Assembly: GCF_000317045.1 (NCBI RefSeq)
Contig: NC_019703.1
Coordinates: 3,440,934-3,480,933 of the forward strand
Length of the DNA: 40,000 nucleotides
Reading direction: 5' to 3'
Source: Geitlerinema sp. PCC 7407
GTDB lineage: Bacteria; Cyanobacteriota; Cyanobacteriia; PCC-7407
The position numbers and the translations under genes are program-made. Within the stretch, counting starts at the first letter, position 1. Each line of letters starts with the position of its first letter. Below the pieces are notes generated by a model. That model made no database searches. It saw only the letters and a list, made by a program, of their open reading frames with translations, and had not been told where the DNA came from. Below, piece after piece: positions 1 through 23,722 of the stretch.

Positions 1-120
1 AACTACTGACTCAATTTTGTCCTGACGATCGCGAAAATTCTTCAGATCTGTTGCATTTTTTCTAAGTGAAACAACATGCGTAGCTAACTGGCTCAACTGT
101 TGACAATCGTCTACGAGCAT
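1..120 (-). CDS. 5' end of an unidentified gene continuing off the left edge (next gene of the helicase/ATPase operon)
   Basis: The minus-strand ATG at 120-118 overlaps the stop (113-111) of the 1032-aa gene by 10 nt. The frame stays open to position 1 (own translation: MLVDDCQQLSQLATHVVSLRKNATDLKNFRDRQDKIESVV...). It is too short for a family call. Confidence 0.3.
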   Translation of the reverse strand, partial: MLVDDCQQLSQLATHVVSLRKNATDLKNFRDRQDKIESVV

Positions 121-3100
121 GGTGATTCTCCTTTAATTTCATGCGCTAGTTGCTGAAGTTCCAGGAGCGATCGCTCAATCCCAATATAACTGGCTTCCAA
201 ATCCCCTGCTCCAGTACTTCTTAAGTCAGCCAAACTTTTTTGGGTCGATTCCGTCGATTTGTCTACCGCTTGTCTCGCAAGGTTCAGGAACCTGGAAATG
301 ATTTCAACAGGACGCTCACTTGCGCTACTCAAGTATTGGAAAAGAAGCCCTATCTCTTCAGTGTTCTGAATCTTTTTCATCAAATCCAGATAACCCTTCA
401 GCCTTGCATTCTCAAAATTTTTCATCGCTTCCATTAAGGCATCACGATTAGAAATACCAGGAATGCCTGCTCCTCTAACCTGGTCAATTGTTTTAGTAAG
501 GGACGCAACTACTTCTTTTTGTGAAAAGTCTTCACCTAGCTCATTAATAAGTTGCTGGTAAACATTGAGTTGGCGGTCGCGCTCTTCCCGAACAGCTTGC
601 TCCAAAAGCTCATCGATTGCCCTCCGGGTGTCACCAATCGCCTTAAATGGCTGGTCTGTGCTGGAATCTGAAACATCAACCTGAGGTTTCCATTCATCAG
701 CAACTGCCTTTAATGGAGAGACTAATTGTGCTGCATCAATCATTTGAAGTACAGCCCTCCCTCCTTTTGTACAAGGAATCCTTGCTTGCAAGATTTCTTG
801 TAGTTTGGGTTGATTCTTTTTCAAGGTATTAAACAGCTTCTGCCAATAATTGGCTCGGCTGCTAATCTCAACTTTTTCCAGATCAGTAAAAACAGCATTA
901 ATGCGATCCTCCAGGTTGTCCGTAGGACGACCCGCCATCCGACCAGCGATCGCCAGCAGCTCAACTACTGCGGGTACAGGATCCCAAGCTTGCCGGGTTC
1001 GAGTTGTACATTTTGGAATTTCATTTAAGACGAAATTGCTCCATTCCTCCAGTTTCCTCGCATAGATCCGGAAGAAGGTTGAGCCATCAGGAAACTTCCA
1101 ATGCTTATAGTGGTTGTAAAGCAGAATAGCTTGAAGAGCGATCGCTGTATCTCCGAGATCATCAGGCACTAAGGGAAGTAGCAGTTCAACATCTCTGACC
1201 TGTGAGGACGTTGCTGCATTGCGAAAATTAATATTACGTTGCTTAAACAGTTTGTCACTGAACTGATTACGCAGAAGCAATTCTGCGTCCCAATCAATCA
1301 TTGCCTCAATGGCTGGAAAGAGCCTACGTCGTAAATCATCTGCTACATTTTGCGGTAGTTGTGTGCCATTTCGCCATTGATCAAGTGCTTGGAGTTGTTC
1401 CTCCAAACCCGTAGGTAGAGTAACTGAATCTGTCTGGTCAAGTATTGGTAGTTTAGCAACGTTCGTAGAAGTTGCTGTAGTCTCTTTTGCGCGTGTTGCA
1501 GTGCTTGTAGTAGGTAGAGAAATTGGAGTGGAAATTTCCTGCTGTTGAATTCCTAAGGCTGGAAGATCAAACGCTGTATGAATTTCAGGGGCAAGGTCAT
1601 GGAGCTTATTGCCATCAGTCCAGAGATTCAGTAGGGCTTCACGGCGACGAGCATTTTCAGCAGTATCTCTGCTCTCAATTTCTCGAATTAGCATCGCACT
1701 GAGTGTACTGCCTCTAAAATGATCCAGCAGAAGCGGAGAAGGAAAACGACCTAGCTTAAGGTCGGAACCATGATACTCAAGTGTATAGCGCAGAACATCT
1801 TTAATCAGAATTCGGGGATTGAAAACGCCTGGATTGGCTCGATCGCGCATCCGCTCAATGGCTTTAGCACTGAAAGGGTATAGCCCCATACCATCCACTT
1901 GCCCAAACCCGTTATGACATGGAGTCCGATAGTCACAATCCATGCAGGCACTAGGAATTGGATTCCGAGGCTCACCTGTTTCCTCTTCTGCATCTTCCAT
2001 CCATGTCTGGATTTCTTGGTTGCCCAACCGAACTGCATTCAAGTACCGCACTGCCAACTGCTGAACATCTGCTTGAGTAACCAGAGACTGATCACCGACC
2101 GCTTCGATATCCAAATTCACGCTAAAGTCAGTCCGTGTTCGGACTGTATCAATCAAGCCCTGGAAATAACCAGTGGTACAAGCGAGGGCTGTCCGCATTG
2201 GACATAGAGCCACCCCTTCAATCTGCTGTGGACGAGCTAAAACAGCTTCCAAAACTTCTCGATCAATTCCCTGTAACTTGGCAAAGTCTTCAATGAGTAG
2301 AATTAGCTCAACTCCCTGACGGGCTAAAGCTCGGCGCACGTCTAACATCAGTTGCTGTAAATCTTCTCGCCCCAGATTCAGGACTTTGGCAACTGCCTCA
2401 TCCAGGTGCTCATTCAGCCAATCTACAGATGCTTGTTGAACTTCATCATCACCAACAAGGAGTGCGTAGAAGGACCGTGCGGCTGCGCTTGCTTTATCGA
2501 TATCTCGAATGTCGCGAGGTAAATCCTCCACAGAAAATTGTCTTCTTTCCTCCACAATTTCAACGGAGTCACGATGCCCTAGTACATGTATTATGAGTTT
2601 GTGAATGATGCCTTCTTCTCTTAACCAATGTTCTCGGAAATAAGGATCAAAAAGCAGTGCTGGCAACGAATCAATTAAACCATTCTGGGTAAAGGAAAGT
2701 CGATTACGGTCATGTTTTCCACTTGGTCCAACCGCAATCGCTAGATTAGCCAAAAGCTGTTCACGAGCTTCAGCTTCACTAAGTGTATTGGTAGCTTGCC
2801 GAAGGCGGTTCCGATACTCGTCAAATTCAGATCCCTCAAGTCCAGTTAAGATACGTTCAATAATGTCTCTTAGGTTAGTGCCGACCTTAGGAATCAACAG
2901 CACTCGATAATGAGGCTCTTGGCGAATACTGCGGATTCGGGTATTCAACCATCGGATCAAATGAGATTTTCCTGTACCCGAAGTTCCCAACACTGGAACA
3001 AAAGCAAAATCTGGGGTTTCCAGAAAATCCTTCAGAAACTTCTCCTCATCATATGGCACTTTAGATTGAGCTTCGGTTAGAGGTTGGCGATACATCTTAA

Positions 3101-3209
3101 TTGGGTGATGGGTCGCCAAAAAGATGTGATCTTCTGGTTGAGTGGCTTCTACATCCATTACTTTACGAACCATATCTGGATGCCAGCATACATACTTACT
3201 GAAAGTCAT
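111..3209 (-). CDS. Large P-loop NTPase of unknown family (DpdH-like by position only)
   Basis: 1032-aa ORF. Walker A GTSGTGKSH at aa 75-83 and a Walker-B-like strand ELILLIEDF at aa 301-309. ATGA start/stop overlap with the upstream 310-aa gene at 3206-3209. The size and its place after an SNF2 helicase, a DEAH helicase and a ~300-aa gene match my recollection of dpdE-F-G-H order; this is not verified. Confidence 0.6.
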   Translation of the reverse strand: MTFSKYVCWHPDMVRKVMDVEATQPEDHIFLATHHPIKMYRQPLTEAQSKVPYDEEKFLKDFLETPDFAFVPVLGTSGTGKSHLIRWLNTRIRSIRQEPHYRVLLIPKVGTNLRDIIERILTGLEGSEFDEYRNRLRQATNTLSEAEAREQLLANLAIAVGPSGKHDRNRLSFTQNGLIDSLPALLFDPYFREHWLREEGIIHKLIIHVLGHRDSVEIVEERRQFSVEDLPRDIRDIDKASAAARSFYALLVGDDEVQQASVDWLNEHLDEAVAKVLNLGREDLQQLMLDVRRALARQGVELILLIEDFAKLQGIDREVLEAVLARPQQIEGVALCPMRTALACTTGYFQGLIDTVRTRTDFSVNLDIEAVGDQSLVTQADVQQLAVRYLNAVRLGNQEIQTWMEDAEEETGEPRNPIPSACMDCDYRTPCHNGFGQVDGMGLYPFSAKAIERMRDRANPGVFNPRILIKDVLRYTLEYHGSDLKLGRFPSPLLLDHFRGSTLSAMLIREIESRDTAENARRREALLNLWTDGNKLHDLAPEIHTAFDLPALGIQQQEISTPISLPTTSTATRAKETTATSTNVAKLPILDQTDSVTLPTGLEEQLQALDQWRNGTQLPQNVADDLRRRLFPAIEAMIDWDAELLLRNQFSDKLFKQRNINFRNAATSSQVRDVELLLPLVPDDLGDTAIALQAILLYNHYKHWKFPDGSTFFRIYARKLEEWSNFVLNEIPKCTTRTRQAWDPVPAVVELLAIAGRMAGRPTDNLEDRINAVFTDLEKVEISSRANYWQKLFNTLKKNQPKLQEILQARIPCTKGGRAVLQMIDAAQLVSPLKAVADEWKPQVDVSDSSTDQPFKAIGDTRRAIDELLEQAVREERDRQLNVYQQLINELGEDFSQKEVVASLTKTIDQVRGAGIPGISNRDALMEAMKNFENARLKGYLDLMKKIQNTEEIGLLFQYLSSASERPVEIISRFLNLARQAVDKSTESTQKSLADLRSTGAGDLEASYIGIERSLLELQQLAHEIKGESPCS

Positions 3210-4138
3210 TGCTGCTCTCCATGGAGATTGTCTCCTAACCAGGTGATATGAGAGATTCGACTATCAGAGCCATCTAGAAATACCCATACTGCTGTATCTG
3301 AAAGCTTGTCTAACTTTATTAGCCCTTCTTCTTCTATACGACGAAGTGAAACGGATGTGACACTTGAGAGATAGTTATGCTCACGTTGTCCAACTTTTTG
3401 CTCAATTTCGTCCCGAAAAGCTCCAGATTCAAAAACAGGACAATACCTGCCTAGATTCAAAATGAATTCATTAACGGGGATTAGCTCAGAATTCTTTTGC
3501 TTGAATACATCCTTGAGAACTTTTCTTAGATAGTTTGTAGGATCTGGAACAATAGCCTTCTTTCCTAAAACTGAATGTCTCCAGCCGAAGTTCAGGAAGC
3601 AGAACCAGTACTCAAACTGCCGAAGACGCTCGTCATTCAATTTGTATGTTTCACCATCACTTAGTCCCGATATCTGGATTGCACCTACTTGTTCACTGAA
3701 AGACTCCACCATACTTTCTGAATCGGTAGGCGCTTCAAATATATCCTGATGAAGATACCAGGCGCAAAGAATGGCTAGATCATGATTCTCATAATTATCT
3801 AAATTAAAGAAAAGTTGGCTGAGAACGGTTGGAAGAAACTCATCACCGAACTGAGGATTCTTGGCTTTAACGGGCAAGTTTGGATGAAGAGCGATATCCT
3901 CATTGTCTGAAATGAATAGCCCTGATTTTATTCCTTCGTTGATTGCAGCGCGAGCCATGGAATATCTATCTTTCTCAGGTTTGTCTTTGACAAAATAATC
4001 TGGAGAAAGAATCCTCTCCAAAGAAGATTTCTTCTCCCTTTGTCCTCTAGTATTTAGCAGGTATCTAAATACACCTCGAATTCTACTTGGTGTAGCTTCC
4101 ACATTCTTCAAAACACTCATAACCCTAATTCTCCACAA
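3206..4138 (-). CDS. Hypothetical protein (DpdG-like by position only)
   Basis: 310-aa ORF with no motif I recognise. It overlaps the upstream helicase gene by 22 nt and the downstream NTPase gene by 4 nt (ATGA), which implies translational coupling in one operon. Confidence 0.55.
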   Translation of the reverse strand: MWRIRVMSVLKNVEATPSRIRGVFRYLLNTRGQREKKSSLERILSPDYFVKDKPEKDRYSMARAAINEGIKSGLFISDNEDIALHPNLPVKAKNPQFGDEFLPTVLSQLFFNLDNYENHDLAILCAWYLHQDIFEAPTDSESMVESFSEQVGAIQISGLSDGETYKLNDERLRQFEYWFCFLNFGWRHSVLGKKAIVPDPTNYLRKVLKDVFKQKNSELIPVNEFILNLGRYCPVFESGAFRDEIEQKVGQREHNYLSSVTSVSLRRIEEEGLIKLDKLSDTAVWVFLDGSDSRISHITWLGDNLHGEQQ

Positions 4139-6651
4139 AGCAAATTTAGGCGAAAACTACGTCCAGTCCAAATATCCTGCAACTTTCGGTGTTTAGCATT
4201 GGGGTCAGGAATATCTTCAGGCAGGAACATAATGAGAGGAATACCTGATTTAAATGGCTGGTAATAGTGAGAAGGTAAAGCCTTGCCCTGGAGGTGATAA
4301 ATCAATGTGGGAACTTTCGGCATTTGCAATGGCTGATAATCTTCAAACAGAAAAACCAATAATTTGCTAAAAACTGTATGCATTGAAGGAGGAGCCACGA
4401 CGTTGAGAATACCTTCACGAATTAACCGTTGGAGAAGTTTGTTGCGATCGCGCGCTCCCTGTCTGCTCTCTGTTGCCTCATAAAAAATAGCGAGTATTGA
4501 CTCTCCTGCTAAAAGCTCCAAAAGCACTTCACCCAGCTGAAATCGCGCTTCTTGCCATACTGGAAGGGGAACTGGCATCACTCCTGAAAAAGGAACAATC
4601 TTCTGTTGGCGACAAAACGGGCAACCACCACAGGATCGTTCAACATGAACACGACGACGTGGTGGGGTGGAACGAGCGGGAATTTTGTATGCCTCTGCAA
4701 AAATCTCAGAAATGCAACGCTTGGATTGCAGCGCCTCTCGCATCAAATTCAGACTCCGACTAGCCCACTGCTGACGCTGATTACGAGCAGGTTCTACTCG
4801 CTCTTGCCAGGTTTCTGGTACCAGATGATAGTCATTGCGAATTTGAATCGTTCGTAAATTCCGATGTCGTGCGATCGCATCGCTAAAAGCCTCATCAGAA
4901 TCGAAAAGTGCCCGTTGCGGAGGCGCTTCTGCATCAATCTCAATCAAATTAGCCCGGCTCATCAAGGTAAGTGTTCGGATATTCCAGTCTTGGTTCCTTA
5001 CACTGGTTGAGTCGAGGTCAAGGTTGTAGGAAGGCCGGACATCGATTGGAACTTGAAACCGCCCATCTGGTAAAGTTATCTGCTTATCGAACATCGCTTG
5101 CCAGCGCATTCTGCCGCGATCGCTTGTAATGTAGGTTATTTCACTTAAAGCAGAAGCAACGTCAAAATCTGACCGAGTATAAAGCGTTAAGGAGAGGGTT
5201 GCTTTTCCATCTCGACCACCGCGTCCGACCTCTTGATAGAAGCGGTCGATTGTTTCTGGTACACACAAATGCACAACTGCACGAACGTCTGGCAAATCGA
5301 CTCCTAACCCAAAGGCAGAGGTAGCAACAACAATATCAATTCGTTGCTCTCGCCAGTCCTGTAAGAGCTGTAAACGCTCTTGTTGGTTGGATTTACCAGT
5401 CATCTTGGCGCAGCGATTGAAGCCTGCTGCTTTTAACTCTCGATGCCACTGGTCTACATCCGCGACCTTGCTACCGTAAAGAATCAGGGGGCGAGGAAGA
5501 TGATGCAGTGCTTCAATTAAGCGTTGTTTCCTTTCTGCCTCATTGACGCAATAGGCAAACCAAAAGGTTGGTTCCGGGCGCAGTTGGACTGATGAAACTA
5601 ACTGGAATGGTCCTGGTTGACCGAAGAGCGTCTCCAGGGTGTCTAGACAGGATTCAGTGACTGTTGCAGTAAGGAGCAGCGTTGGAAATACTGCTACTCC
5701 TTGCTGTTGGGCAACTCGCAATAAGTCTTTTCGCAAGCCTGCCAATTCCTGAAATTCAGGACGGAACTCATCTCCCCATTGCTCTACAATGTGAGCTTCG
5801 TCAATGACCAAATATCGAAGAAACCCCTGCCGTACTGCTTCATAAACACTGAATGCTAAAGACTCAATTAAGCCCTCTGGGGATGTAAATACAATCGGTT
5901 GAGTCCCTTGTCGGATGCGATCGCGGATTTCCTCGCGGCGCTCTTGTCCATCAACAGAAGCATCACTGTAATAGGCGGTTGCAAAATTAATCCCAGTTTT
6001 TTCTTGAAAGGCTCGCTCTTGATCAATGGCTAACGCTACGGTTGGGACGACGACCACTGTAACACCAACTGGTTTTGACTTTAACCATGCTGGTAGATGG
6101 GCACAGAGACTCTTGCCAGAGCCAGTGGGCAGATTAATCACCAGAGTTGATTGTGCTGGCGCGGTGAGAATTGAGCGAATTGCCTCTCGTTGTCCTGTAC
6201 TCTGATAAGTATTGAAACCTAATTCAGCTAGAAAGGGGTCGCCCCCTTCAGGTTGATAATTTCGGCGCACCACTTCCTGAAATAGAGGCACTTCAGGAGA
6301 TTGCTCTTCGGCTTCTGGCAACCAATCAGGTATCCAGGGGCGGGCACTCAAGAGAAAATACTCTGGTTGTTCATCTAGAATGTCCATACTACTCAATTCC
6401 CAAATCTGCCGAGATTTAGGAAAGGGTGCATTGCGAGGAACCTTTAGGATCGGAGAGTTCCCACCTTGTTGCTCAGCTTCTCGCCTCAAAACGTGACGGA
6501 CGAGCGCGGTTAGATCTCCTGGTGCTGGTGTATGGGAACTTGATGCTTGCAATGCTTTTAGCAGGCGACGCTGACAGGCTTCAGCGACATCATCAGTCCC
6601 TTCCATTGCAACAAAGATATTCAGAGCATCTTGAATGGTTTGGAAACTCAT
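4117..6651 (-). CDS. DEAD/DEAH-box superfamily-2 helicase, RecQ-like core (DpdF/DpdJ-like)
   Basis: 844-aa ORF. Motif I NLPTGSGKSL, motif II VIDEAHIV (DEAH), motif III LLTATVT, motif VI QEVGRGGRDG (compare RecQ QExGRAGRDG). C-terminal Cys cluster SCGGCPFC. ATGA overlap with the SNF2 gene at 6648-6651. Confidence 0.85.
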   Translation of the reverse strand: MSFQTIQDALNIFVAMEGTDDVAEACQRRLLKALQASSSHTPAPGDLTALVRHVLRREAEQQGGNSPILKVPRNAPFPKSRQIWELSSMDILDEQPEYFLLSARPWIPDWLPEAEEQSPEVPLFQEVVRRNYQPEGGDPFLAELGFNTYQSTGQREAIRSILTAPAQSTLVINLPTGSGKSLCAHLPAWLKSKPVGVTVVVVPTVALAIDQERAFQEKTGINFATAYYSDASVDGQERREEIRDRIRQGTQPIVFTSPEGLIESLAFSVYEAVRQGFLRYLVIDEAHIVEQWGDEFRPEFQELAGLRKDLLRVAQQQGVAVFPTLLLTATVTESCLDTLETLFGQPGPFQLVSSVQLRPEPTFWFAYCVNEAERKQRLIEALHHLPRPLILYGSKVADVDQWHRELKAAGFNRCAKMTGKSNQQERLQLLQDWREQRIDIVVATSAFGLGVDLPDVRAVVHLCVPETIDRFYQEVGRGGRDGKATLSLTLYTRSDFDVASALSEITYITSDRGRMRWQAMFDKQITLPDGRFQVPIDVRPSYNLDLDSTSVRNQDWNIRTLTLMSRANLIEIDAEAPPQRALFDSDEAFSDAIARHRNLRTIQIRNDYHLVPETWQERVEPARNQRQQWASRSLNLMREALQSKRCISEIFAEAYKIPARSTPPRRRVHVERSCGGCPFCRQQKIVPFSGVMPVPLPVWQEARFQLGEVLLELLAGESILAIFYEATESRQGARDRNKLLQRLIREGILNVVAPPSMHTVFSKLLVFLFEDYQPLQMPKVPTLIYHLQGKALPSHYYQPFKSGIPLIMFLPEDIPDPNAKHRKLQDIWTGRSFRLNLLCGELGL

Positions 6652-9600
6652 TGGGGTCGTGCCTCCCCATTGGGTAATTTCGGCAGTCGTCCAGAGACAA
6701 TGTAGAACCCGACAGAATCAAGACGAATCGCAGGAGTAAGAATCCCTTGAACGAAGATTTGACTTAGTGCTTTCTCCAGTTCATATTCTTGAGCCAGTAG
6801 AGAATCTGAGTGAGCTTGGGCTTGACGCTCTAGACGAAGGCGGAGTTGCTCCACTCGATCGCCCAACTTGCGCTTTGCCTGGGTTGCATACCGCTGACAG
6901 CGATCGCGGAACTGCTGCCGCTCTCGAAGAAGTTTTTCAGATCGGCTTCGAGTGCCTCGACAGAAATACTCCCAGTCATCTTGACTAATAAATTCATCTA
7001 AAACGAATGACCGATCCTTTGCCAGGTTGTAGTCTCGTGTTGGTTCTCTGTGTTGTGAGTACGGACGTTGAAGAATCTCTAATAACTTTGGATCTGTGAC
7101 TGGTTGCATTCCCGTAGTCATCACCAAAGTTTCTACTGAAGGTGGGAAGAGAGCATCAGTTCGACGAATCAGCGCTGTTCTATTCGACTGGGGCCAACCA
7201 TGACTTTGCAAGACTTCATCTAATTTAGACAGGTTTGTTTCTACAACATAATCGAACCGAAAGCCTACCCACTCTGCGCCTTCACTCGATGGCCAACTTT
7301 CCTCATGCCGCCAAAGGGCAAATGCTTGCCCCCGGTCATCCCAACGGACGAAATGAGCTAGTGCATCCAGAAGAGGATGCCCAATGCGGTAAACAGATAC
7401 TCCAGGCTGTTGAAGAGCCTTTCGTCGATTGTACGTTCCTGTTTCAGCAAAACTGCTTGAGAACAAGCTGTAGAGATCTTTGACTGGAACCAGTGTTTCT
7501 CGACGACCTTTCAGGCTAGGTCGGTAAGCAAAGATGTCATCAGAGTTCTGATCCTGTCCATCCTGGAATTCTCGCTTGAACTGCAATGCTTCATAAACCC
7601 AGCCTTCCACCGCTTGCTTAAGCTTTCGATGCTGAGAGTCATAATCCTCAAGTTCCTGGAAATACTGAGCAGCACTTTCTTCCAGCGCATCAATTTCGTC
7701 TAAAGCATTTTGCTCGTCAATACTGACCTTTTCTCTGTGAATCTCATCATGAACGATCGCAATGGATTGCTTTAACCCATAGGCACCAGATTCAAATAAT
7801 GCCTCAGCCAGATCAGGTAACTTGCGATCCACATAAAACTGAAGACTGGCGATAGACTCTTGAAAGATCTTGAAGCCGTCTTTCAAGACTTGAAACCAGG
7901 CATCGTGCAGACTATCTCCTACGTCCGCTCCCGCAAATACAACGTAATTCATTAATTGTCGCCGCCCAATGCGATTCATTCGACCGTGGCGCTGCTCTAA
8001 ACGATTGGGTGACCAAGGCAAGTCAAAATGAATCATCCAGTCAGCAAACTGTAAGTTGTGCCCCTCTTCTCCAGAGGCATCACACACCAGAACAAAGCAT
8101 CGAGGACTTTCTAGAAATTGGGTTGTATTAGCTTCAACCTCATCAATCGATTGTCCTACTTGGTAAGTTGCGATCGCCTCTTGTCCAAAAGCCTCTTTCA
8201 ACGGAGCCACAATCTTTTGACAGGTATAACTAAAACTGGTGAAAACAACTGCTTTGAACGGGCGATCACCATTTTTCGTTCTTAACGTTGTCAGCACCAC
8301 TTGTAATTGGTCAATGCGATCGCCAAACTCAGGTTGCTGCTGTAAGTTGTCTAACAGAGTTTGTAGAATATTACTTTCACCAGGAAAGAGAGGCGTTTTG
8401 AGAAACAACTCCGCTTCTTCACCAAAATCCTGAATCAGCGTTGGAGAAACACCACCACTTAGACGAGCAGAAATCAACTCCTGCAAAAGACCAAGCTCTG
8501 TCCCGCTAGCACGAAAAAGTAAAAGAAAGACGGCTCTGAGCTGCTGCCAGTCCTGATAATCAGGGTCATTCTTCATTCCCAAGGCGCGAACACGCCACTC
8601 ATCCAAATACTCGTGGACAATGAGCGATCGCTCATCTTCGTCATATTCAACTCTAGGAATCACACCCGATTGGTCAAGCAGTACATCCTCCAAACTCTCA
8701 CGGCGATTCCGCAGCATTCGTCGATGTAGACGGTAAGTATCACTAATATGAGTACGAATGGAACGAATTACCCTACTTTGTTCTTCAGAATCAACCTGTA
8801 GAGCTTGCAGGATGGTTTCTAGTTGATTCAACAGTAAAGATAAGCGCTCATCAGAGTTGAAGAGATTTTTGAGCTTACTCAAAGTCATCTTAAGAACGAA
8901 ACTTGAAGCATCCTCTTTGAAGGACAGCAATACCCGCCCGATGTCCTGACGTAATCGTACTCGCTCTTTGAAACCGTCCAGATCTTCAAGGCGGTAAGTC
9001 ATGGGGTCGAGCAAGTGCAGCATCGCCAGAAAAGCCTGTTCATGGTTTAGCGCGGGGGTAGCTGAAAGTAGTAGAACTTGCTTTGCTTGGTGGGCTAATT
9101 TTCTACAAAATTCAAAACATTCTCGCTGTGCTGAGTCCGGTGAAACTGCCATTCCTGCAATATGCTGAGCTTCATCCAGAACCAGAAAATCAGGTTGGAA
9201 TTGAATATGAGTAGAGCGGATGTCCTCAATCGTCAACCAGTCAATCTCTTCGGAGAGATAAAACTTGGCTTCGAGTTCCTGTTGCCACTGCTTCAGCAAA
9301 GGCTTCGGAGCAATTACCAGCACTCGTCCCGTTGGGTTATCCAACAGGTACTGCCGTAATATGACCCCTGCCTCAATCGTCTTGCCCAAACCAACTTCAT
9401 CGGCTAGAAGATACCGCTGAATAGAGTCTTCCAGCACGCGACGAACAACTTCGACCTGATGAGGATAAAGCTCGATGCTAGCAGAGAGCAATCCTGGCAT
9501 ACCACGACTAACAGCCCGCTGCTCAATTAAGCACCGAAAGAAATTAGAGCGGCGATCGTAGAAGAAAGGGGTTTCATGCCCTCTTAAGATAAGTACTTCC

Positions 9601-9938
9601 GTTGGGTCATCAATTGGGCGATTACAACGGACATGGATGTCTTGTTCAACGGCGTAGCAGAACTTCCCATCTGGCAAGTCAATTTCGTAGCGGCGATCGT
9701 CGTCATGCCACTTGTAAATCCTTCCAATCAGCCATGACTCTCTCTCCTCAGACCAGAGGTAGCAGCGGGTGTGCCGTTGAAGAATAACTCGTTCCAGTGA
9801 GCTGATCGGAACGGATTGCTGGATTCGCTCCCCTACTGATACAAAATATTCAATCTGAGCATCAGAATAAGAAATATCCTGAAGCCTCCCAGTTCCTAGA
9901 CTATTAAGACGTGAGCGAACTAGAATACCTGGTTGCAT
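6648..9938 (-). CDS. SNF2-family helicase/translocase (DpdE-like)
   Basis: 1096-aa ORF. SNF2 motifs LADEVGLGKTIEAG (I), LVLDEAQHIA (II), LLLSATPALN (III) and HFDLPWSPNRLEQRHGRMNRIGR (V-VI). Preceded by a 136-bp gap after dpdA. Confidence 0.85.
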   Translation of the reverse strand: MQPGILVRSRLNSLGTGRLQDISYSDAQIEYFVSVGERIQQSVPISSLERVILQRHTRCYLWSEERESWLIGRIYKWHDDDRRYEIDLPDGKFCYAVEQDIHVRCNRPIDDPTEVLILRGHETPFFYDRRSNFFRCLIEQRAVSRGMPGLLSASIELYPHQVEVVRRVLEDSIQRYLLADEVGLGKTIEAGVILRQYLLDNPTGRVLVIAPKPLLKQWQQELEAKFYLSEEIDWLTIEDIRSTHIQFQPDFLVLDEAQHIAGMAVSPDSAQRECFEFCRKLAHQAKQVLLLSATPALNHEQAFLAMLHLLDPMTYRLEDLDGFKERVRLRQDIGRVLLSFKEDASSFVLKMTLSKLKNLFNSDERLSLLLNQLETILQALQVDSEEQSRVIRSIRTHISDTYRLHRRMLRNRRESLEDVLLDQSGVIPRVEYDEDERSLIVHEYLDEWRVRALGMKNDPDYQDWQQLRAVFLLLFRASGTELGLLQELISARLSGGVSPTLIQDFGEEAELFLKTPLFPGESNILQTLLDNLQQQPEFGDRIDQLQVVLTTLRTKNGDRPFKAVVFTSFSYTCQKIVAPLKEAFGQEAIATYQVGQSIDEVEANTTQFLESPRCFVLVCDASGEEGHNLQFADWMIHFDLPWSPNRLEQRHGRMNRIGRRQLMNYVVFAGADVGDSLHDAWFQVLKDGFKIFQESIASLQFYVDRKLPDLAEALFESGAYGLKQSIAIVHDEIHREKVSIDEQNALDEIDALEESAAQYFQELEDYDSQHRKLKQAVEGWVYEALQFKREFQDGQDQNSDDIFAYRPSLKGRRETLVPVKDLYSLFSSSFAETGTYNRRKALQQPGVSVYRIGHPLLDALAHFVRWDDRGQAFALWRHEESWPSSEGAEWVGFRFDYVVETNLSKLDEVLQSHGWPQSNRTALIRRTDALFPPSVETLVMTTGMQPVTDPKLLEILQRPYSQHREPTRDYNLAKDRSFVLDEFISQDDWEYFCRGTRSRSEKLLRERQQFRDRCQRYATQAKRKLGDRVEQLRLRLERQAQAHSDSLLAQEYELEKALSQIFVQGILTPAIRLDSVGFYIVSGRLPKLPNGEARPQ

Positions 9939-10074
9939 GATCCTAGGTTTAAGCTGAGTCAGGCTATATAGATGCAGCCAAACTAGTATTCCCTTCCATA
10001 GAAGACATACTCACACCGATCACTATTGCTACAGCCGTTTACCTAGTATGACCAATTTCTCCTGAAGTGGCTAT

Positions 10075-12210
10075 TTAGGGTTGGGCTAGGAGTTGTTTCA
10101 AATTGCCAGAAAATTCTCTTTCCGCCAATTCATCTTCTGCTTGAGCAGTAGGAGTGGTGAGATGCTTTAGCAACGATTGAAACCGTTTGTAAAAGACATA
10201 GGTATTATGAAACCCACGCCTGCGATTGCGATTATTATTTCTAAAAATTACTACTTCAATTCCAACATCCTGGCAAATCGCGCAATCGCAAACTTTCCAG
10301 GGCTTTTCCTCTAAAACTTCCCGGTATAGAGTCTCATGTGTAGCTCGTCGCTTCGCCTGAGCATCTAGATCAACTTTGCCATCTCGTGGCAGTTCAACCA
10401 GTTCATCGTAGGCTAGCACAGCTTCAAGAGTTGCCTCGACTCCAAGTTTATTCCTGTCGAACTCGCGCAATGCTTTGAGAGCATCTTGCTCTAGCTTGTG
10501 AAGCGTTGGCAAATCAGCGACTCCAGCAGCTACTAGCTTTTTAACCCGCAAACCATTATTTGCAACAGGCGGCACTCGGATCGCTGCGTAGCGTTTCCCC
10601 GTCATCGTATGATAATTTGCTGTTACCCCTAACCAAGCCTGCCGTAACGGGCTTGCCGAATCACAGCTCGTCACTCCCAAGTGCCGAAAGGCAGGGATTG
10701 TATCGATTCGAGCAACACCAAATAGGTGCATTCGCACATGGGATTGAAGGCGTGGGTGTATTGCTTCAAGAATGGGCAGAATTTCGGAGTTTTGGGCACG
10801 CGCCAATCCTCCTAGAGCAATATAGTCATATCCCATTTGAATCAATTCTTGTACCGCTGCTGCATAAGATTCAGGATCCCAACCCTGTGCCACGCCGATT
10901 GGAGTAAATTGATAGCCTCGTTCCTGGTGTTTTCCTAGAAACTCTGCTGCATTTTCAAGTGTTAGTTTGTATCGAAGATCTCGAATGCCTGGAACCGCAA
11001 ATGGACCAACAATAAGGTGATCAATACTGACCCCAAAATCAAAACCAAGGCGTTCATAGTAATCTAAAATTTCATCTGTATTGTAAGGAGGAAGATCCTC
11101 TTTGATATAGCTAAATGCACCGCAATCCCCCATGATCTTTCCAGGGAAACGAACAAATTTATGAACCCCTAGTTCTTCGACTCTATTTCTCTTCGTTTGA
11201 CTTTCATCTATGACAGCTTTAGAGACTAAAACCCCATCATAGTTAGGGGATGGAAAGAAGATTTCATGGGCGTAAACGTCATCAGCATAGGAGTCATGCC
11301 GATTAGATCCAAAGGAATCTGTTAAGAAATTGTACTCAGGATCAACCCGATCATCCCATTCAGGAATAAAGTACTGCATACCCAAGTGAACATTCGGGGC
11401 AGACGGTAAATCGGGGATGGGAATGAATTCACCTTTGTTTTTTTTCGTGGTGACTTGCTTAGGCTTGCTGCTTATTACTAATTGAGGTAGACCTAAATCA
11501 AGTTCAAGTTGAGTCGTTCTATCAATAATTTCCTGAAAACGACAGGGATCTTGGTGAATTTGTTCAAATAGATCAGGTTGCTCTGCCGCAACTAAAGCAA
11601 ATTGTTTGAATAAAAAACCCTTTAACCCTACTGAACCAAAACCGTACTTCTTTGCCTCAGCGTTCGTGAGAGGCAAGACAAATGCTTGAGGATCTGATGT
11701 CTTAATTAAGTTAGAGCAACTCCCTGGAGCTAAGAAAATCCAAGTTTGCTCCTCGTAAAGGGTGAGCGGTAATGAGATTGCTCTTAAATACTTTTCACCT
11801 AGTAGAACAAAAATCAAATCATAGTCAGAAATTATTTTTTCAAGTGATTGATGTATCTTTAATCGTTTTGCCCAGTCATCTATCTCATGCCCTTTCATTG
11901 TGTTGAAAGTGACTTCGTAGGGTGCAATTACACGATCTTCAGGAATCAATCCATAACCTGCTGAGATGATAAATACATCAATTTCAGGCTTCTCTAAAGT
12001 CTTCCGTAGAGTTCGCACACCCTCCATCAATTGGGTATGCTGCATCCCCGTATACATTTCTCCTGCCGGAGCCATAAACTCAGAAAGCTGCTTTTCTCTT
12101 TTGCGGAGTCGAGCAGCGTGCGTAAAATCTTCCTGAGTGAGTTGATTCTCTGGCTTAAATCGCTTTTCCCCGGTACACGATGTAATGATTAAGACACGGG
12201 GGTAGCGCAT
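10075..12210 (-). CDS. dpdA: DpdA-like DNA-guanine transglycosylase (TGT-fold) fused to an N-terminal ~235-aa domain of unknown function
   Basis: 711-aa ORF. From about aa 275 it shows TGT-like features: [25 protein letters not shown]. The TGT zinc motif CxCxxC...H is present as CDCAICQ-(22 aa)-H near the C-terminus. The start overlaps the queC stop by 22 nt. The N-terminal part ([16 protein letters not shown]..., [19 protein letters not shown]) is not TGT-like and is joined by a Lys-rich linker ([15 protein letters not shown]). Confidence 0.75.
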
Positions 12211-12911
12211 CGGTTCTCCTGTTCGTACAATTCTCGCCCTACTAACGTTGCCAGATCGGGTCTACCTGCGTCAATCAGGGCACGATCGCGAATCCGGCAA
12301 GAGTCGCACAACCCACAGGGTTCATCCTCGCCTTGATAGCAAGACCAGGTGAGGTGAATCGGAACACCTAGTTGTAACGCACGATGCACGATATCTACTT
12401 TGGAATCCATAACCAGTGGAGCCACAAGCTTAGGGGCATGCCCTTCTAATCCAGTCTTGGAGGAGAGGGTTGCAAGATGCTGGACAGCTTCTAGGTACTC
12501 CGGTCGGCAATCAGGATAGCCAGAATAGTCTACGGCATTGATTCCCAAATAAATTGCTTCGGCTCCTTTGGCTTCAGCCAGGGATAGAGCGATCGCCAAA
12601 AAGACCGTATTCCGCCCCGGCACATAAGTAATGGGAATCACACCAGGCTTCACACCGTCAGTCGGCACATCCACAGCCTGGTCAGTCAAGGCAGAACCGC
12701 CCCACTGCGCCAAATTCACATCCACCACAAAGTGTTCCTTGATCCCCAAATGTTCAGCGACCCGCTTAGCAGCAATGAGTTCGCGATCGTGCCTTTGTCC
12801 GTAATGGAGCGATAGAGCAATCAACTCGTAACCATCAGCGATCGCCTGAGCAGCAGAGGTCGATGAATCCAGACCACCAGACAATAAAACAATAGCTTTG
12901 GGAGCATTCAT
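12189..12911 (-). CDS. queC: 7-cyano-7-deazaguanine (preQ0) synthase QueC
   Basis: 240 aa. N-terminal PP-loop [11 protein letters not shown]-terminal zinc Cys cluster [20 protein letters not shown]. Typical QueC length. Confidence 0.9.
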
Positions 12912-12935
12912 GGTTCACCTCATGGTAAGGGGTCA

Positions 12936-13166
12936 TTAGCTTGGCGATCGCCAGATGGGTTTTACGTCACTTTCAAATTGGTAAAGTTTACGGCAAAGGT
13001 GCCCGATCTCATCACTGCGAGGTTGTCCGCTTTCTCCGAAGGTTTCTTGCTCCATGTCCTCGCTCATTTGGTCATAAGGATCGTCATCCTCGTGGTTGTC
13101 AGCCCAATATTCCAGGGATGCAAGGATGATGGAAAGTTCGCGGGGGGATAGTTCAATTTGAGCCAC
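12936..13166 (-). CDS. Small highly acidic protein, unknown function
   Basis: 76-aa ORF between queE and queC. It has a GTG start preceded by GAGAGGTG 7 nt upstream, and the queE stop lies 14 nt upstream. By my count it has 18 Asp/Glu against 6 Lys/Arg. No family recognised. Confidence 0.5.
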   Translation of the reverse strand: MAQIELSPRELSIILASLEYWADNHEDDDPYDQMSEDMEQETFGESGQPRSDEIGHLCRKLYQFESDVKPIWRSPS

Positions 13167-13180
13167 TAGCTTTCACCTCT

Positions 13181-13819
13181 CTATCGAATGTTGGTGAACT
13201 TATGAGTTTGTAAGCTAATCCGCCATTCGGAATGGCTGAGAACGTACTCGAAGATTAGCGAGTAGCTATCAGGCGTGCCCCATTCCGGTTGGAGCAACTT
13301 AACCGCATGAGTTGGAATTCTGGCACCGTGCTCCTCCGCCCATATCAAATCAGAGCGGTTGGCAACGACAACCTTCAATTCACTGACCTGAGAATAAATA
13401 CTTGCATGAGGAGGTTTAGAGGGCTTAGGAGAGAATGTGACCCAGTCAAAACTGCCACTAAAGGGGTGTGCGCCGGAAGTTTCCAGATGCACTCGCAACC
13501 CTGCGTTTCTCAAACCAGAACTGAGGCAGGAGAGGTCATGCAACAAGGGTTCGCCACCTGTGATCACAACGATCGCCGGATTTGCTGCTTTAGCTTCTGC
13601 AATCAGGTCAGTCGTATGGCGTTGGGGATGGCGATGGGCATTCCACGAATGTTTGGTATCACACCAGGGGCAACCCACGTCGCAGCCTGCCAAGCGAATA
13701 AAGAAAGCATTTGTACCTGTCCACGCTCCCTCACCTTGAACGGAGTGGAAGGTTTCCACCACTGGCAAGACTGCCGAGGCTGTTTTAGCGGTTGAGGTCG
13801 TGGGGATCAGGCTTGTCAC
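13181..13819 (-). CDS. queE: 7-carboxy-7-deazaguanine synthase QueE (radical SAM)
   Basis: 212 aa. It starts ...FHSVQGEG and carries the radical-SAM cluster motif CDVGCPWCDT (CxxxCxxC). Size and context between queD and queC fit QueE. Confidence 0.9.
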   Translation of the reverse strand: MTSLIPTTSTAKTASAVLPVVETFHSVQGEGAWTGTNAFFIRLAGCDVGCPWCDTKHSWNAHRHPQRHTTDLIAEAKAANPAIVVITGGEPLLHDLSCLSSGLRNAGLRVHLETSGAHPFSGSFDWVTFSPKPSKPPHASIYSQVSELKVVVANRSDLIWAEEHGARIPTHAVKLLQPEWGTPDSYSLIFEYVLSHSEWRISLQTHKFTNIR

Positions 13820-13854
13820 AATGTGCTAATTCGTAGATGTCGCAAGGGTTACTC

Positions 13855-14244
13855 CTAGTCGTCTTCGTACTCAGCCCAGGAATTGGGGGTTTCAGACACG
13901 GCGACCTTGAGCTTTACATCTGAGGGCAATTGCTTTTTCGTCTTTTCATGGATGTATTGAGCAATCATCTCAGCAGTCGTTTCATAGCCTTCAGGGAGGA
14001 CTTCGTTCAAAACAGAGTGGTCAAGCCCCCCTTTGAGCAAGTCTTGCTTTGCCCAGCGAAGCGTGCGGAAGTCCGCTACCATAACGGGATGAGGACAGTA
14101 TTCGGAGGTATGAAGCTGGCTAGAAGTTGCTTCAATGCGTACCCGGTAGGTATGCCCGTGCATCCGCCCACAAGGACCGTCATAGTCTCGAATGTAGTGG
14201 GCAGCATCGAAGGTAAATTCAGTCGTCAGTTTCCACTTGGGCAT
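13855..14244 (-). CDS. queD: 6-carboxy-5,6,7,8-tetrahydropterin synthase QueD
   Basis: 129 aa. FDAAH...CGRMHGHTY catalytic Cys/His motif of the PTPS/QueD family. First gene of the que-dpdA block. Confidence 0.9.
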   Translation of the reverse strand: MPKWKLTTEFTFDAAHYIRDYDGPCGRMHGHTYRVRIEATSSQLHTSEYCPHPVMVADFRTLRWAKQDLLKGGLDHSVLNEVLPEGYETTAEMIAQYIHEKTKKQLPSDVKLKVAVSETPNSWAEYEDD

Positions 14245-14562
14245 GGGGAGCTATCCGATCGCTTATAAACCAGTGGATCTTAGATCCATTCCATATCTAG
14301 CGGCACAGGTCTTAAATTTATATCACTTCACCCTAAATATAGAATCAGTGTTAACGAATATTCTAGATGTGCCCTCTCAGTCTTCTCCTGCACGGATCAG
14401 AGTATGAGATGAGTTCTATATTAGTTCATTTGTCCTATAAAAGTTTCTCTTGACTTGCCAAATGGCAAGTTGAATCTAAAAATTTAGGTTTGAAGGAAAA
14501 AGCAGGTATTTCTCCTCCCAAGCTGGTCATGTGCTCCACCGCGCGGAAACTTTCTCCAAGGT

Positions 14563-15303
14563 TTAGAAGGTGCTGAGAGATCTTGAAATCCATATTTCAG
14601 ATAGATAAAAGTCTCCCTGTTGCTCCAATTCATAATCACCTAGCAGCAAGGCTAACCATACTTTGACAAGCGTCATCTGTGGGTCATGCCGCTGTAGTCT
14701 CTGACAGAGTTGGGAAAATGTCACTTTTAACGTGGATGATTGGACCCATTCACCTAGCTCTCGGGAAATTGCCTCTATCCAGGCAGATACGTCCTCGTCG
14801 TGGGCGATCGCCAACATCTCTTGCACCTGTATGAATTCGTCGTCAGGATCCACACAAGCCCGCAATCCACCCTTCTCCCCTTCCCCCGCAATTGAAGCTT
14901 CTGCAACCTCTTGAGAGGATCGCTTGTGTTGACACGGCTTTGGTTGACGTGTCAGTTCAGACAGGTCAAGATGCATGGTCTGCTGTATCAGTTCGTTTAG
15001 CCAATCCTCTGCAATGAGCGGTTCTGCCTCAACATCTGTCTCCTCCCAATCACTCAACCACCGCATTGCTCTTTGGTGATGTAGATCCGCTAACTGGGCG
15101 ATCGCCCATCCACCTAACCTCAGCTGGTCGATTTTCGACATCTGTCGCAGAACGGGTTCCACATTTTGCCACAGTTGATTCAAGTTAGCCTGTTCTGGCT
15201 CAACTAATGCTTGCTCGAACAATTGTCGGATCGCTATTTCTGCCTGAGCAAACATAGGGAAATTCCTTACTTTGCCTTTAAAGGACAGGGTGCGATCGGG
15301 CAC
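14563..15303 (-). CDS. Hypothetical protein (acidic, Trp-rich)
   Basis: 246-aa ORF. A more likely start is the ATG at 15255 (MFAQAEIA...), preceded by AAGGAA and lying 11 nt after the stop of the upstream gene. No motif recognised. Confidence 0.5.
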   Translation of the reverse strand: MPDRTLSFKGKVRNFPMFAQAEIAIRQLFEQALVEPEQANLNQLWQNVEPVLRQMSKIDQLRLGGWAIAQLADLHHQRAMRWLSDWEETDVEAEPLIAEDWLNELIQQTMHLDLSELTRQPKPCQHKRSSQEVAEASIAGEGEKGGLRACVDPDDEFIQVQEMLAIAHDEDVSAWIEAISRELGEWVQSSTLKVTFSQLCQRLQRHDPQMTLVKVWLALLLGDYELEQQGDFYLSEIWISRSLSTF

Positions 15304-15776
15304 TCACAAGGTTCTAGACGGATCGGTGGCTCAAACTCCGTGATGCCGTATCGCTCCTTCAACGTTACCAAAACCTTTTGTAGGTAGGACTTCACCTGCC
15401 CATTGGTCATACCCATGCAATGGATTGGCTCAGTTTCTGCCAGTTTGTCTGACCCTCTCCACACCGTCACGGCTACTGCATGAAGGTGGGCGTCCTTCCT
15501 TGCTTCTCGGTAAAGGTAAAGTAGCCCGATCTCTGGAAACTCAACTGGAACAGCGATTTTATCTGTTTCCGAAACCGTTGGTTCCTGACGTTGAGACGGC
15601 GATCGCTTCCTCCGTCGTTTGGCATTACTTTCAATTCGATGACGGTAGTGCGATCGCCGTCGGTGACAGCGCTTAGGGTTCCAGCAATCATCACCCGACT
15701 CACCGTGAAGTTGTTGAGCCTGGGCGACTGAAAGCTGGCTACAGTGCAGACATTTTGCCTGGGTAGGGCGTGGCAT
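15267..15776 (-). CDS. Hypothetical protein with an N-terminal Cys-rich (zinc-ribbon-like) segment and an Arg-rich tract
   Basis: The ORF is open from 15857, but the ATG at 15776 (MPRPTQAKCLHCSQ...CWNPKRCHRRRSHYRHR) is the likely start. CxxC...CxxxxC followed by a basic stretch suggests nucleic-acid binding. Divergent from the recombinase gene. Confidence 0.5.
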   Translation of the reverse strand: MPRPTQAKCLHCSQLSVAQAQQLHGESGDDCWNPKRCHRRRSHYRHRIESNAKRRRKRSPSQRQEPTVSETDKIAVPVEFPEIGLLYLYREARKDAHLHAVAVTVWRGSDKLAETEPIHCMGMTNGQVKSYLQKVLVTLKERYGITEFEPPIRLEPCECPIAPCPLKAK

Positions 15777-15927
15777 CCGCTTGAACGCTGAAGTACAGGT
15801 TTGTAGCGTTAGTTTTTGTGTAGTACAGATAATTATAGTTATTTGGAGTAGAATCAAGAAAATCTGAGCTGGCTACCGCAAATTGAGCCTTCCAGCGCTG
15901 CTCTATTTCAACAACGGGATCAACACG

Positions 15928-16959
15928 ATGGCTGAAGCTGAGCCAAAATTCTACTTCTACGACAAAACGGCTCTCGAAGCTTCTCCTGTCCCCGCTACTC
16001 CTGTTGATCTCCGATGGCAGCGTGTAGAGGAGTTTTTGCAGAGCCGAGAGTTTGCGCCAAACACTCGGAAGGCTTACGAGCGGGAGTTGCGGCGGTTCGC
16101 TAATTGGACAGAGAAACCTTGGCACGCGATTACTGCTCAAGATGTCGATCGCTTTAAGGCATTTCTCAAAGAGGGGCGATCGCAAGACACAACGACTGAC
16201 AATCCAGGAGCAGGGAAGCCTTTAAAGGCGGCTTCAAGTAAACGTGCTCTGGCGGCACTGCAAAGTTTTTTCAAATGGTTGAGCAGTTGGGATTACATCA
16301 GTAAGAATCCGACCCTTGTAATTGAGAAGCCCAAACTGGAGCCGTTGTTCTCTAAAGAACTGAAAGCTTCTGAAGTCCGAGCTTTACAGGAAGCTCTGGA
16401 AAACCGGGGAGAGACAGAAGCGAGAGACACAGCACTCTTGGCGGTGCTGGAACACGGACTCAGGGCTTCTGAGATTGCGGCACTTAACATTGAAGATTAT
16501 GACGGAGTGAGACTGCTTATTCGACGCGCAAAAGCAGACAGTGTGGGCGCTGTTCCTCTGCTTCAGCCTGCTCGAAGATCCCTGGATGCTTATTTAGGAT
16601 GGCGTTTACGGCAGGGATTACCAGTTACTCCCAATTCTCCGCTATTTCTCTCAACTTCTAATAACAGCAAAGGGCAGCGACTGAGCTATTGGGGAATTTA
16701 CAAAATCATGAAGGATCTGGCACAGACAGCAGGGGTTGAGGACTTTCATCCTCATCGTTTACGGCATACGTTTGGAACAAAGTTAGTGCTGAAAAAGATG
16801 GACAGCACATTGGCACGACAATTAATGCGGCACAAATCTGAGGCAAGCTTTGAGCGATACACTCGACGGGCACTAGAGATTGAGGCAGAGAACCAGTTTT
16901 ACGAGGTCTTTGGTGAAGAACATCCTGACGGGGCGATCCATCATGGATTAAACGAGTAG
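15928..16959 (+). CDS. Tyrosine site-specific recombinase/integrase (XerC/D-like)
   Basis: The ORF runs from a TTG at 15883, but the likely start is the ATG at 15928 (MAEAEPKF...). N-terminal SAM-like core-binding region. Catalytic residues are present in GLRASEIAAL (Arg), HPHRLRHTFGT (His-x-x-Arg) and HKSEASFERYTR (His...Tyr). Confidence 0.85.
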   Translation: MAEAEPKFYFYDKTALEASPVPATPVDLRWQRVEEFLQSREFAPNTRKAYERELRRFANWTEKPWHAITAQDVDRFKAFLKEGRSQDTTTDNPGAGKPLKAASSKRALAALQSFFKWLSSWDYISKNPTLVIEKPKLEPLFSKELKASEVRALQEALENRGETEARDTALLAVLEHGLRASEIAALNIEDYDGVRLLIRRAKADSVGAVPLLQPARRSLDAYLGWRLRQGLPVTPNSPLFLSTSNNSKGQRLSYWGIYKIMKDLAQTAGVEDFHPHRLRHTFGTKLVLKKMDSTLARQLMRHKSEASFERYTRRALEIEAENQFYEVFGEEHPDGAIHHGLNE

Positions 16960-16989
16960 CTCAACGCCAATTCAGCATAGCAGTGACCT

Positions 16990-18055: not shown

Positions 18056-18097
18056 CTGGTTTATCCATAATTAGTAGAACTGTTATGGATAAACCAG
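18056..18097. repeat. Perfect 15-bp inverted repeat with a 12-nt loop
   Basis: CTGGTTTATCCATAA (18056-18070) and TTATGGATAAACCAG (18083-18097) are exact reverse complements. The repeat lies between the intact and decayed TnsB-core genes. No U-run follows on either strand, so it is not a canonical terminator. Confidence 0.7.
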
Positions 18098-18116
18098 ATT
18101 TCATTGCTAAGCTTAG

Positions 18117-19031: not shown

Positions 19032-19159
19032 GATAGTACATTTGAACTATAATGCACATTTTTTTAGGAAAAAGTGAGTTGTCAACTGGCAAAAGTTTTA
19101 CCGATGAGGCAACAAAACTTTGCCCTACTCATACAAGTGATAAAAGACACAACCATTGA

Positions 19160-19687: not shown

Positions 19688-19735
19688 CGCTTAAATCCAG
19701 GTCGATTATTTGCTTGTGACCATTCAATGGAACAA

Positions 19736-23685: not shown

Positions 23686-23722
23686 ATAAGTTCGCTTGTA
23701 CTACATAGTAAAATCCGTTTCG

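Follow-up and report, generated by a model that had tools for sequence, protein, structure and literature searches.

Roles have been established for DpdA, DpdB, and DpdC of the 7-deazaguanine DNA restriction-modification (Dpd) system described in Salmonella Montevideo (PMC5699537, PMC10164549, 10.1101/2025.02.24.639861). In that system, DpdA requires DpdB and ATP in vitro (PMC10164549), and DpdC is a DUF328/DUF6884 protein (PMC5699537; 10.1101/2025.02.24.639861). We analyzed a stretch of 40,000 nt from Geitlerinema sp. PCC 7407 (NC_019703.1, positions 3,440,934-3,480,933, forward strand; the whole stretch is hereafter the window), in which genes for the synthesis of preQ0 adjoin a 711-aa homolog of DpdA and a run of genes encoding helicases and other proteins. 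The initial annotation, made from the sequence letters, had read this locus as a Dpd-type island with a reduced, non-canonical gene set. The Dpd-type assignment was borne out by profile searches. The reduced gene set could not be maintained, as DpdE to DpdH scored above their cut-offs, DpdC was found fused to DpdA, and DpdJ, DpdK, and DpdD are encoded a few genes past the left edge of the window. The window very probably represents the first two-thirds of a complete Dpd restriction-modification island of PCC 7407 with a cyanobacterial architecture. This cyanobacterial variant is distinguished by a DpdC::DpdA fusion, the lack of an orthologous DpdB, and a DndB-like protein as the probable substitute.

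The 711-aa protein consists of two domains joined by a linker, as follows.

10075-12210, minus strand: whole fusion protein, 711 aa, AFY67283, RefSeq name 'DpdA'.
11515-12210, minus strand: DpdC-like (DUF6884/YaaA-fold) domain, residues 1-232 (Pfam DUF6884 52 bits, cut-off 30).
11380-11514, minus strand: interdomain linker, residues 233-277, mostly disordered (predicted local distance difference test score (pLDDT) <50 at residues 233-260; low alignment conservation).
10075-11379, minus strand: DpdA DNA-guanine transglycosylase domain, residues 278-711 (NF041059 481 bits, cut-off 200).

The DpdA equivalog match covered residues 278-679. Assignment to tRNA-guanine transglycosylase (TGT) or arcTGT was rejected, the score of 481 bits comparing with 36 bits for TgtA (cut-off 350) and 29 bits for Tgt (cut-off 307). 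The domain matched PDB 7UI4 with an E-value of 1.5e-92, and an AlphaFold model built from 39 homologs superposed on 7UI4 with a Foldseek TM of 0.88 and a root-mean-square deviation of 2.4 Å. Residue roles were taken from PMC10164549. D362, D397, and D517 align with Asp95, Asp130, and Asp256 of S. Montevideo DpdA, F366 is the equivalent of Phe99, and G467/G468 are the equivalents of Gly206/207. The zinc site (C641, C643, C646, and H668) is invariant in the 39 homologs, and His181 of S. Montevideo is replaced by an invariant glutamine (Gln442) in the fusion.

Residues 1-232 form a separate domain with high pLDDT. Besides the DUF6884 match and a weak Pfam match to YaaA/DUF328, three PADLOC DpdC hidden Markov models (HMMs) matched this domain with E-values of 4e-9 to 1e-6, and a 115-sequence profile aligned with DpdC of Enterobacter pPOL9A over 206 columns in hhalign (probability 96%, E 1.8e-9). 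According to Pfam, the DUF6884 motifs are CxxxK and LSAxxG (PMC11701544); their counterparts in the fusion, C12xxxK16 and S83-A-G-Y-G87, are invariant in the 39 homologs. The ratios of nonsynonymous to synonymous substitution rates (dN/dS) against three relatives were 0.08-0.14 for this domain and 0.06-0.10 for the DpdA domain, and both domains are under purifying selection. By these comparisons, the seemingly missing DpdC is the N-terminal domain fused to DpdA, for which a nitrile-hydratase function is predicted. The earlier observation of no stand-alone DpdC was literally true of the window and had overlooked the DpdC domain within the 711-aa protein. In Enterobacter pPOL9A itself (L021, 18935-19918), the 'hypothetical protein' upstream of dpdA is DpdC with its start called too late; the in-frame sequence upstream of the annotated start holds the conserved CTNGK (CxxxK) motif.

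Nearly all of the best 120 homologs of the 711-aa protein are 640-750 aa long and carry both Pfam domains. Most are cyanobacterial, and the fusion is widespread among cyanobacteria; a further copy lies on a Paenibacillus plasmid. A mis-joined gene pair was rejected as an explanation of the 711-aa open reading frame (ORF), the fusion being kept in >100 homologs. Haloarchaeal plasmids match both domains; in at least one of them (Natronococcus), the annotation has separate genes for the DUF6884 and TGT proteins. The RefSeq label for the fusion proteins is plain 'DpdA', and our literature search found no paper that describes a DpdC::DpdA fusion. The GATOR-GC preprint survey, which was anchored on dpdA and dpdB, reported a single cyanobacterial island, without restriction genes, and so missed the fusion class. 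On plasmids of Nostoc NIES-3756 (L022, 12789-18450) and Picosynechococcus PCC 73109 (L023, 3832-9403), the fusion is accompanied by a helicase, a second small TGT-like protein, and a further helicase, in that order, and not by dpdE-K, suggesting that the same writer can have other partners for restriction.

The preQ0 genes precede the fusion gene on the same strand.

13855-14244, minus strand: queD (6-carboxytetrahydropterin synthase), AFY67286 (Pfam PTPS 108 bits).
13181-13819, minus strand: queE-like gene for a radical-SAM 7-carboxy-7-deazaguanine synthase (Pfam Radical_SAM).
12936-13166, minus strand: 76-aa acidic ORF between queE and queC, without a family match.
12189-12911, minus strand: queC (7-cyano-7-deazaguanine/preQ0 synthase), AFY67284 (TIGR00364 224 bits, cut-off 150; Pfam QueC 240 bits).

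Of these linked genes, queC was assigned above its cut-off, and queD and queE were assigned by Pfam together with best NCBIfam matches below the cut-off. The best NCBIfam match of the queD product, the first gene product of the preQ0-synthesis/modification operon, was QueD at 75 bits (cut-off 89 bits), and the top five matches of the queE product were all QueE subfamilies (best 125 bits), none reaching its equivalog cut-off. No folE was found in the window. The 76-aa ORF had no match in Pfam, NCBIfam, PADLOC, or PHROGs. It is near-identical in a metagenome relative (L027), and in Leptolyngbya sp. GGD its reading frame stays open for no more than ~52 codons from the start; it is therefore listed as a tentative gene.

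All dpd and que ORFs lie on the minus strand, at exactly the coordinates first listed, and the G+C content is ~0.45 over the island, rising to ~0.6 past 27 kb. The ORF map reproduced the gene layout of the initial annotation in full, including the 22-nt overlap of queC with the 711-aa ORF (12189-12210), the 136-bp gap between the 711-aa and 1096-aa ORFs (9939-10074), the translational coupling of the genes that follow, and a fifth gene leaving the window. An identical 22-nt overlap is present in Leptolyngbya sp. GGD. Promoter and terminator scans of the 136-bp gap and of the region upstream of queD gave nothing beyond shuffled controls, and no tRNA or Rfam family was found in the window. Each of the nine window genes is intact, with a profile match over its full length.

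The genes downstream of the 136-bp gap were assigned as follows.

6648-9938, minus strand: dpdE, SNF2-type helicase, 1096 aa, AFY67282 (NF041062 1070 bits, cut-off 500, full-length).
4117-6651, minus strand: dpdF, RecQ-like DEAH helicase, 844 aa, AFY67281 (NF041063 923 bits, cut-off 550).
3206-4120 (ORF as listed 3206-4138), minus strand: dpdG (NF041064 116 bits, cut-off 80).
111-3209, minus strand: dpdH, P-loop NTPase, 1032 aa, AFY67279 (NF041065 897 bits, cut-off 450).
1-120, minus strand: first 40 codons of a dpdI-like gene running past the window edge (ATG at 120, overlapping the dpdH stop).

Judged by these profile scores, the four genes after dpdA encode the canonical DpdE, DpdF, DpdG, and DpdH. 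The dpdH product matches the entry 'protein DpdH [Geitlerinema sp. PCC 7407]' at 100% identity. Translation of dpdG probably begins at the ATG at 4120, whose overlap with the dpdF stop reads ATGA; from this start the protein has 304 aa, not 310 aa. With the 4-nt overlaps at 6648-6651 and 3206-3209, the translational coupling is real. The 40 window codons of the dpdI-like gene are 62.5% identical to the start of the 233-aa protein encoded next after dpdH in Leptolyngbya sp. GGD, and the place of this gene after DpdH is conserved.

DpdG differs in its conservation from its neighbors. It is 45% identical to DpdG of the relatives L016 and L017, compared with 94-97% for DpdE and DpdF and 83-88% for DpdH. 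The nucleotide similarity to L016 (dpdG 8773-9657) and L017 (dpdG 9120-10004) ends exactly at the dpdF stop and returns near the 3' end of dpdG. This drop in identity indicates that dpdG is a hypervariable cassette that has been replaced, and it looks like a swapped cassette for specificity or sensing.

A scan of genome contigs retrieved only Microcoleus-type loci with ~50% identity. In Microcoleus species (L003, L006-L009, L012, and L014; e.g., L003 3206-13812), isolated dpdE-F-G-H-I modules interrupt a liv-type ABC transporter operon, and dpdA, dpdJ, and dpdK are all missing from the vicinity. Just upstream of dpdE, several such modules keep a 27-aa relic of a ~285-aa hypothetical protein (discussed below). 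The Microcoleus modules are orphan restriction half-systems.

The remaining components were located beyond the left edge of the window by exact-sequence look-ups. Their order was inferred from sequential GenBank accessions, which the RefSeq WP numbers parallel, and not from sequence.

AFY67277: DpdJ.
AFY67268: DpdK (PLD).
AFY67267: DpdD.
AFY67264: hyp289, a 289-aa hypothetical protein.

By accession order, DpdJ is the second gene past DpdH, and a single gene slot (AFY67278) lies between them, which fits the dpdI-like gene; DpdK and DpdD follow eight coding sequences (CDS) further on. None of the three proteins is truncated, and each shares at least 90% identity with its counterparts in relatives. 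The order queD-queE-small ORF-queC-dpdC::A-E-F-G-H-I-J-K-D is found in Leptolyngbya sp. GGD, and E-F-G-H-I-J-K-D also in Leptolyngbya sp. FACHB-261 and in the canonical Enterobacter plasmid. Given this order elsewhere, the place to expect dpdD is the distal end of the operon and not beside dpdA. The initial annotation was correct that no dpdD lies between dpdA and the SNF2 gene, a place where the gene would not be expected. The four downstream proteins had also been described as showing no nuclease motif by eye; the PLD nuclease motif missing from the window proteins belongs to the off-window DpdK, which is likely the nuclease. It had been remarked as well that dpdB, dpdC, and dpdD immediately off-window would make the island ordinary, and much of this was found, with DpdJ, DpdK, and DpdD a few genes past the edge and DpdC in the fusion; canonical DpdB was not found. 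In the closest relative (L017 13848-23096 and L025 1-9586), a Tc-toxin cassette encoding a TcA-like protein of 3095 aa and a TcB/TcC-like protein of 2598 aa lies between dpdI and dpdJ.

Of the supposedly missing parts, only canonical DpdB is still unaccounted for. A conserved trio was identified in four independent fusion-bearing cyanobacterial clusters, comprising a ~285-aa protein, a DGQHR protein encoded on the opposite strand, and a ~85-aa protein. The trio directly follows dpdC::A in FACHB-261, an Allocoleopsis plasmid, and the Scytonema NIES-4073 plasmid, and it follows dpdD and a UvrD and PD-(D/E)XK gene pair in L025, the closest long relative. The DGQHR proteins of the relatives scored best against DndB models, yet under the DndB equivalog cut-off (119 vs 328 bits). 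In one protein of 1205 aa (P0022), a precomputed DndB domain (PF14072) stands beside DUF6884 and TGT domains, and its C-terminal ~500 residues are weakly similar to the relatives' DGQHR proteins (30% over 94 residues, E 2e-4). In PCC 7407, hyp289 had no family match in profile searches and lies exactly three genes past DpdD, the same position as that of the ~285-aa partner in L025; from this shared position, a candidate DGQHR gene is likely at AFY67263. A DndB-like DGQHR protein and its ~285-aa partner probably take over the ATP-dependent helper function of DpdB.

The analysis itself shows the family assignments, domain structure, residue conservation, gene order, and presence of DpdJ, DpdK, and DpdD in the genome; the enzymatic chemistry, the act of restriction, and what the DGQHR protein does are modeled on the S. 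Montevideo system. QueD, QueE, and QueC, together with the host GTP cyclohydrolase I, would supply preQ0. The DpdA domain would exchange guanine in DNA for preQ0 using Asp362 and Asp517 as the acid and nucleophile pair, and the fused DpdC domain would hydrate the nitrile, so that the expected mark is likely dADG. DpdE, DpdF, DpdG, and DpdH, with the off-window DpdI, DpdJ, DpdK, and DpdD, would restrict unmodified DNA, the PLD protein DpdK being the likely nuclease. The DndB-like DGQHR protein and the ~285-aa protein, which in relatives adjoin dpdC::A or follow dpdD as a pair, would probably take the DpdB step.

To the right of queD, the window contains genes and remnants of a mobile element.

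14563-15857, minus strand: between queD and the recombinase gene, two ORFs in overlapping frames, listed at 246 and 196 aa (gene calls of L027, 230 and 169 aa).
15883-16959, plus strand: tyrosine recombinase (XerC/D-like), AFY67289 (Pfam Phage_integrase 86 bits).
16990-17493 and 18117-19031: two decayed TnsB-like fragments.
19160-19687, minus strand: small tniQ, 175 aa (Pfam TniQ).
19736-20665, minus strand: tnsC/TniB (Pfam TniB).
21598-23685, minus strand: tnsB-like gene (Pfam Mu-transpos_C; PHROG transposase).
23722-23922: probable transposon end, by repeats and sequence, with three ~23-bp TnsB-site-like repeats and a terminal TGTACA (23917-23922).

The region 23722-23922 is presumably a transposon end, from its likeness to Tn7-like and type V-K ends. 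The small TniQ and TnsC resemble those of type V-K CRISPR-associated transposons; no cas12k, CRISPR array, or Rfam match was found in the window, and the far end of the element lies off-window. The 246-aa and 196-aa ORFs had no match in four HMM libraries, and their region is 91% conserved at the nucleotide level in L027. The tyrosine recombinase is co-located with the island in L027 and other contigs. Past the transposon end are three tandem KGK-domain genes, purM, and rlpA, which are host genes. Between the transposon end and purM, three tandem paralogous units of ~310 bp (24186-25100) were observed, and the plus-strand units at 24502-24774 and 24815-25096 encode small KGK-domain proteins.

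From this arrangement, the dpd island appears to be cargo of a Tn7-like transposon. Over window positions 10177-22349, which take in the transposition genes, the recombinase gene, the que genes, and dpdC::A, nucleotide identity to L027 1-12037 was 91%, compared with 66-72% for dpdE-H of the same contig; L016 and L017 are 94% identical to the window through dpdF. The identity break in L027 falls at the dpdA/dpdE junction and marks the island as a mosaic. This pattern argues that the modification block moves with the Tn7-like element and that this junction is where it recombines with the restriction block.

Several observations weigh against a complete island with a substitute for DpdB. No ORF of the 40-kb window matched DpdB (NF041060) or a DGQHR/DndB model, and tblastn was also empty, in agreement with the initial annotation that no ParB-like DpdB is present; the DndB-like DGQHR gene is found in relatives. 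The DGQHR proteins of these relatives pass TIGR03187 and not NF041060, and resemble DndB. In PCC 7407, the candidate DGQHR gene is placed only by the accession of its neighbor and falls outside the 90% cluster of the relatives' DGQHR proteins. Homologs of the dpdI-like protein scored weakly against NCBIfam DpdI (51 bits, cut-off 150) and PADLOC (E 8e-4). Lastly, dpdJ and dpdK, which overlap by 4 nt in relatives, are eight CDS apart in PCC 7407, and the restriction operon is thus interrupted.

The strongest alternative is that the fusion is a DpdB-independent writer, which modifies DNA without a ParB/DGQHR ATPase like the phage DpdAs, the DGQHR proteins of relatives being accessory or regulatory like DndB. 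In PCC 7407, Leptolyngbya sp. GGD, L016, L017, and L027, dpdC::A adjoins dpdE with no DGQHR gene nearby, and both domains show the low dN/dS values of purifying selection. The Nostoc, Picosynechococcus, and Paenibacillus plasmid fusions likewise have no annotated DGQHR neighbor, and in Dnd systems DndB is regulatory, not catalytic (PMC5699537). We nevertheless consider this unlikely. The requirement of S. Montevideo DpdA for DpdB and ATP speaks against it, as do the cyanobacterial clusters, four or more in number, that link a DGQHR gene with the fusion, the combination of DndB, DUF6884, and TGT domains in P0022, and the retention in PCC 7407 of hyp289, the gene for the partner of the DGQHR protein.

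An island in decay, rearranged and partly inactivated, with its restriction operon broken by insertions and DpdB lost, would account for the eight CDS between dpdJ and dpdK, the Tc-toxin cassette that separates dpdI from dpdJ in the closest relative, the decayed TnsB fragments nearby, and the orphan dpdE-I modules of Microcoleus. It is improbable given the intact state of all nine window genes, the dN/dS values of 0.06-0.14, and the full length and high identity of DpdJ, DpdK, and DpdD. A truly reduced system lacking DpdB, DpdC, DpdD, and a nuclease, with a modified base, energy source, and effector unlike those of S. Montevideo, would fit the lack of stand-alone dpdB, dpdC, and dpdD in the window and can be dismissed as highly improbable, since DpdC is fused to DpdA, DpdE to DpdH are canonical, and the genome carries the genes for DpdJ, DpdK (PLD), and DpdD within 2 to 12 CDS past dpdH. 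The suggestion that the modified base, the energization of DpdA, and the effector may all differ, and with it a mechanistically different system, was accordingly not supported.

With a complete Dpd island as the preferred reading, the claim of a reduced set is of little consequence, the island being a full system whose proteins already bear Dpd names in RefSeq. The DpdC::DpdA fusion argues for a physical coupling of preQ0 insertion and hydration and would provide a dADG writer in a single polypeptide. Because canonical DpdB is repeatedly replaced by, or separated from, a DGQHR protein of DndB type and its partner, these clusters provide a ready comparison for whether DpdA needs the DpdB ATPase. 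Surveys anchored on dpdA and dpdB under-count this fusion class, and the replacement of the DpdG cassette gives a hint of the subunit on which phages exert selection. More tentatively, one might picture a distinct cyanobacterial version of Dpd in which one DpdC::DpdA polypeptide inserts preQ0 and makes dADG, either free of DpdB or with a DGQHR/~285-aa loader, DpdG serves as an exchangeable cassette for specificity or sensing, and Tn7-like elements spread the entire system as cargo; as a combined proposal this is possible and still rather doubtful.

Among known systems, Dnd resembles the present one in its DndB, whose models are the best match of the relatives' DGQHR proteins; in contrast to Dnd systems, no dndACDE genes are present, and the relatives' DGQHR genes are embedded in dpd clusters. 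Phage DpdA systems (dPreQ0, dG+, and others; PMC10516641, PMC10484667) share a DNA transglycosylase accompanied by que genes and no DpdB. They differ in belonging to other DpdA subfamilies, in modifying a large share of the targeted guanines, and in having no DpdE-K restriction partner.

The S. Montevideo system (PMC10164549, PMC5699537) shares with PCC 7407 the DpdA, DpdE, DpdF, DpdG, and DpdH equivalogs, DpdJ, DpdK, and DpdD in the genome, a DpdC homolog, linked preQ0 genes, and the catalytic Asp triad and zinc site of DpdA. In PCC 7407, however, DpdC is the N-terminal domain of DpdA and not a separate protein, and His181 is Gln. No protein here matches the DpdB model, and relatives have a DndB-like DGQHR protein with a ~285-aa partner instead. 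DpdI is divergent, the island appears to be transposon-borne, and relatives have a UvrD/PD-(D/E)XK pair after dpdD. Enterobacter cloacae pPOL9A (NZ_CP086409) shares the restriction order dpdE-F-G-H-(I)-J-K-D and differs in having separate dpdC, dpdA, and dpdB on the opposite strand, with no que genes in the stretch examined.

The closest likeness is to other cyanobacteria. Leptolyngbya sp. GGD, FACHB-261, and the Scytonema sp. NIES-4073 plasmid share the DUF6884::DpdA fusion (54-82% identity), DpdJ, DpdK, and DpdD. In FACHB-261 and Scytonema, the genes for the ~285-aa protein, the DGQHR protein, and the small protein stand right after dpdC::A, whereas PCC 7407 has the 136-bp gap there and hyp289 beyond dpdD. 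Both GGD and FACHB-261 share the dpdE-I order of PCC 7407, and in GGD the que-dpdC::A-dpdE junction is identical.

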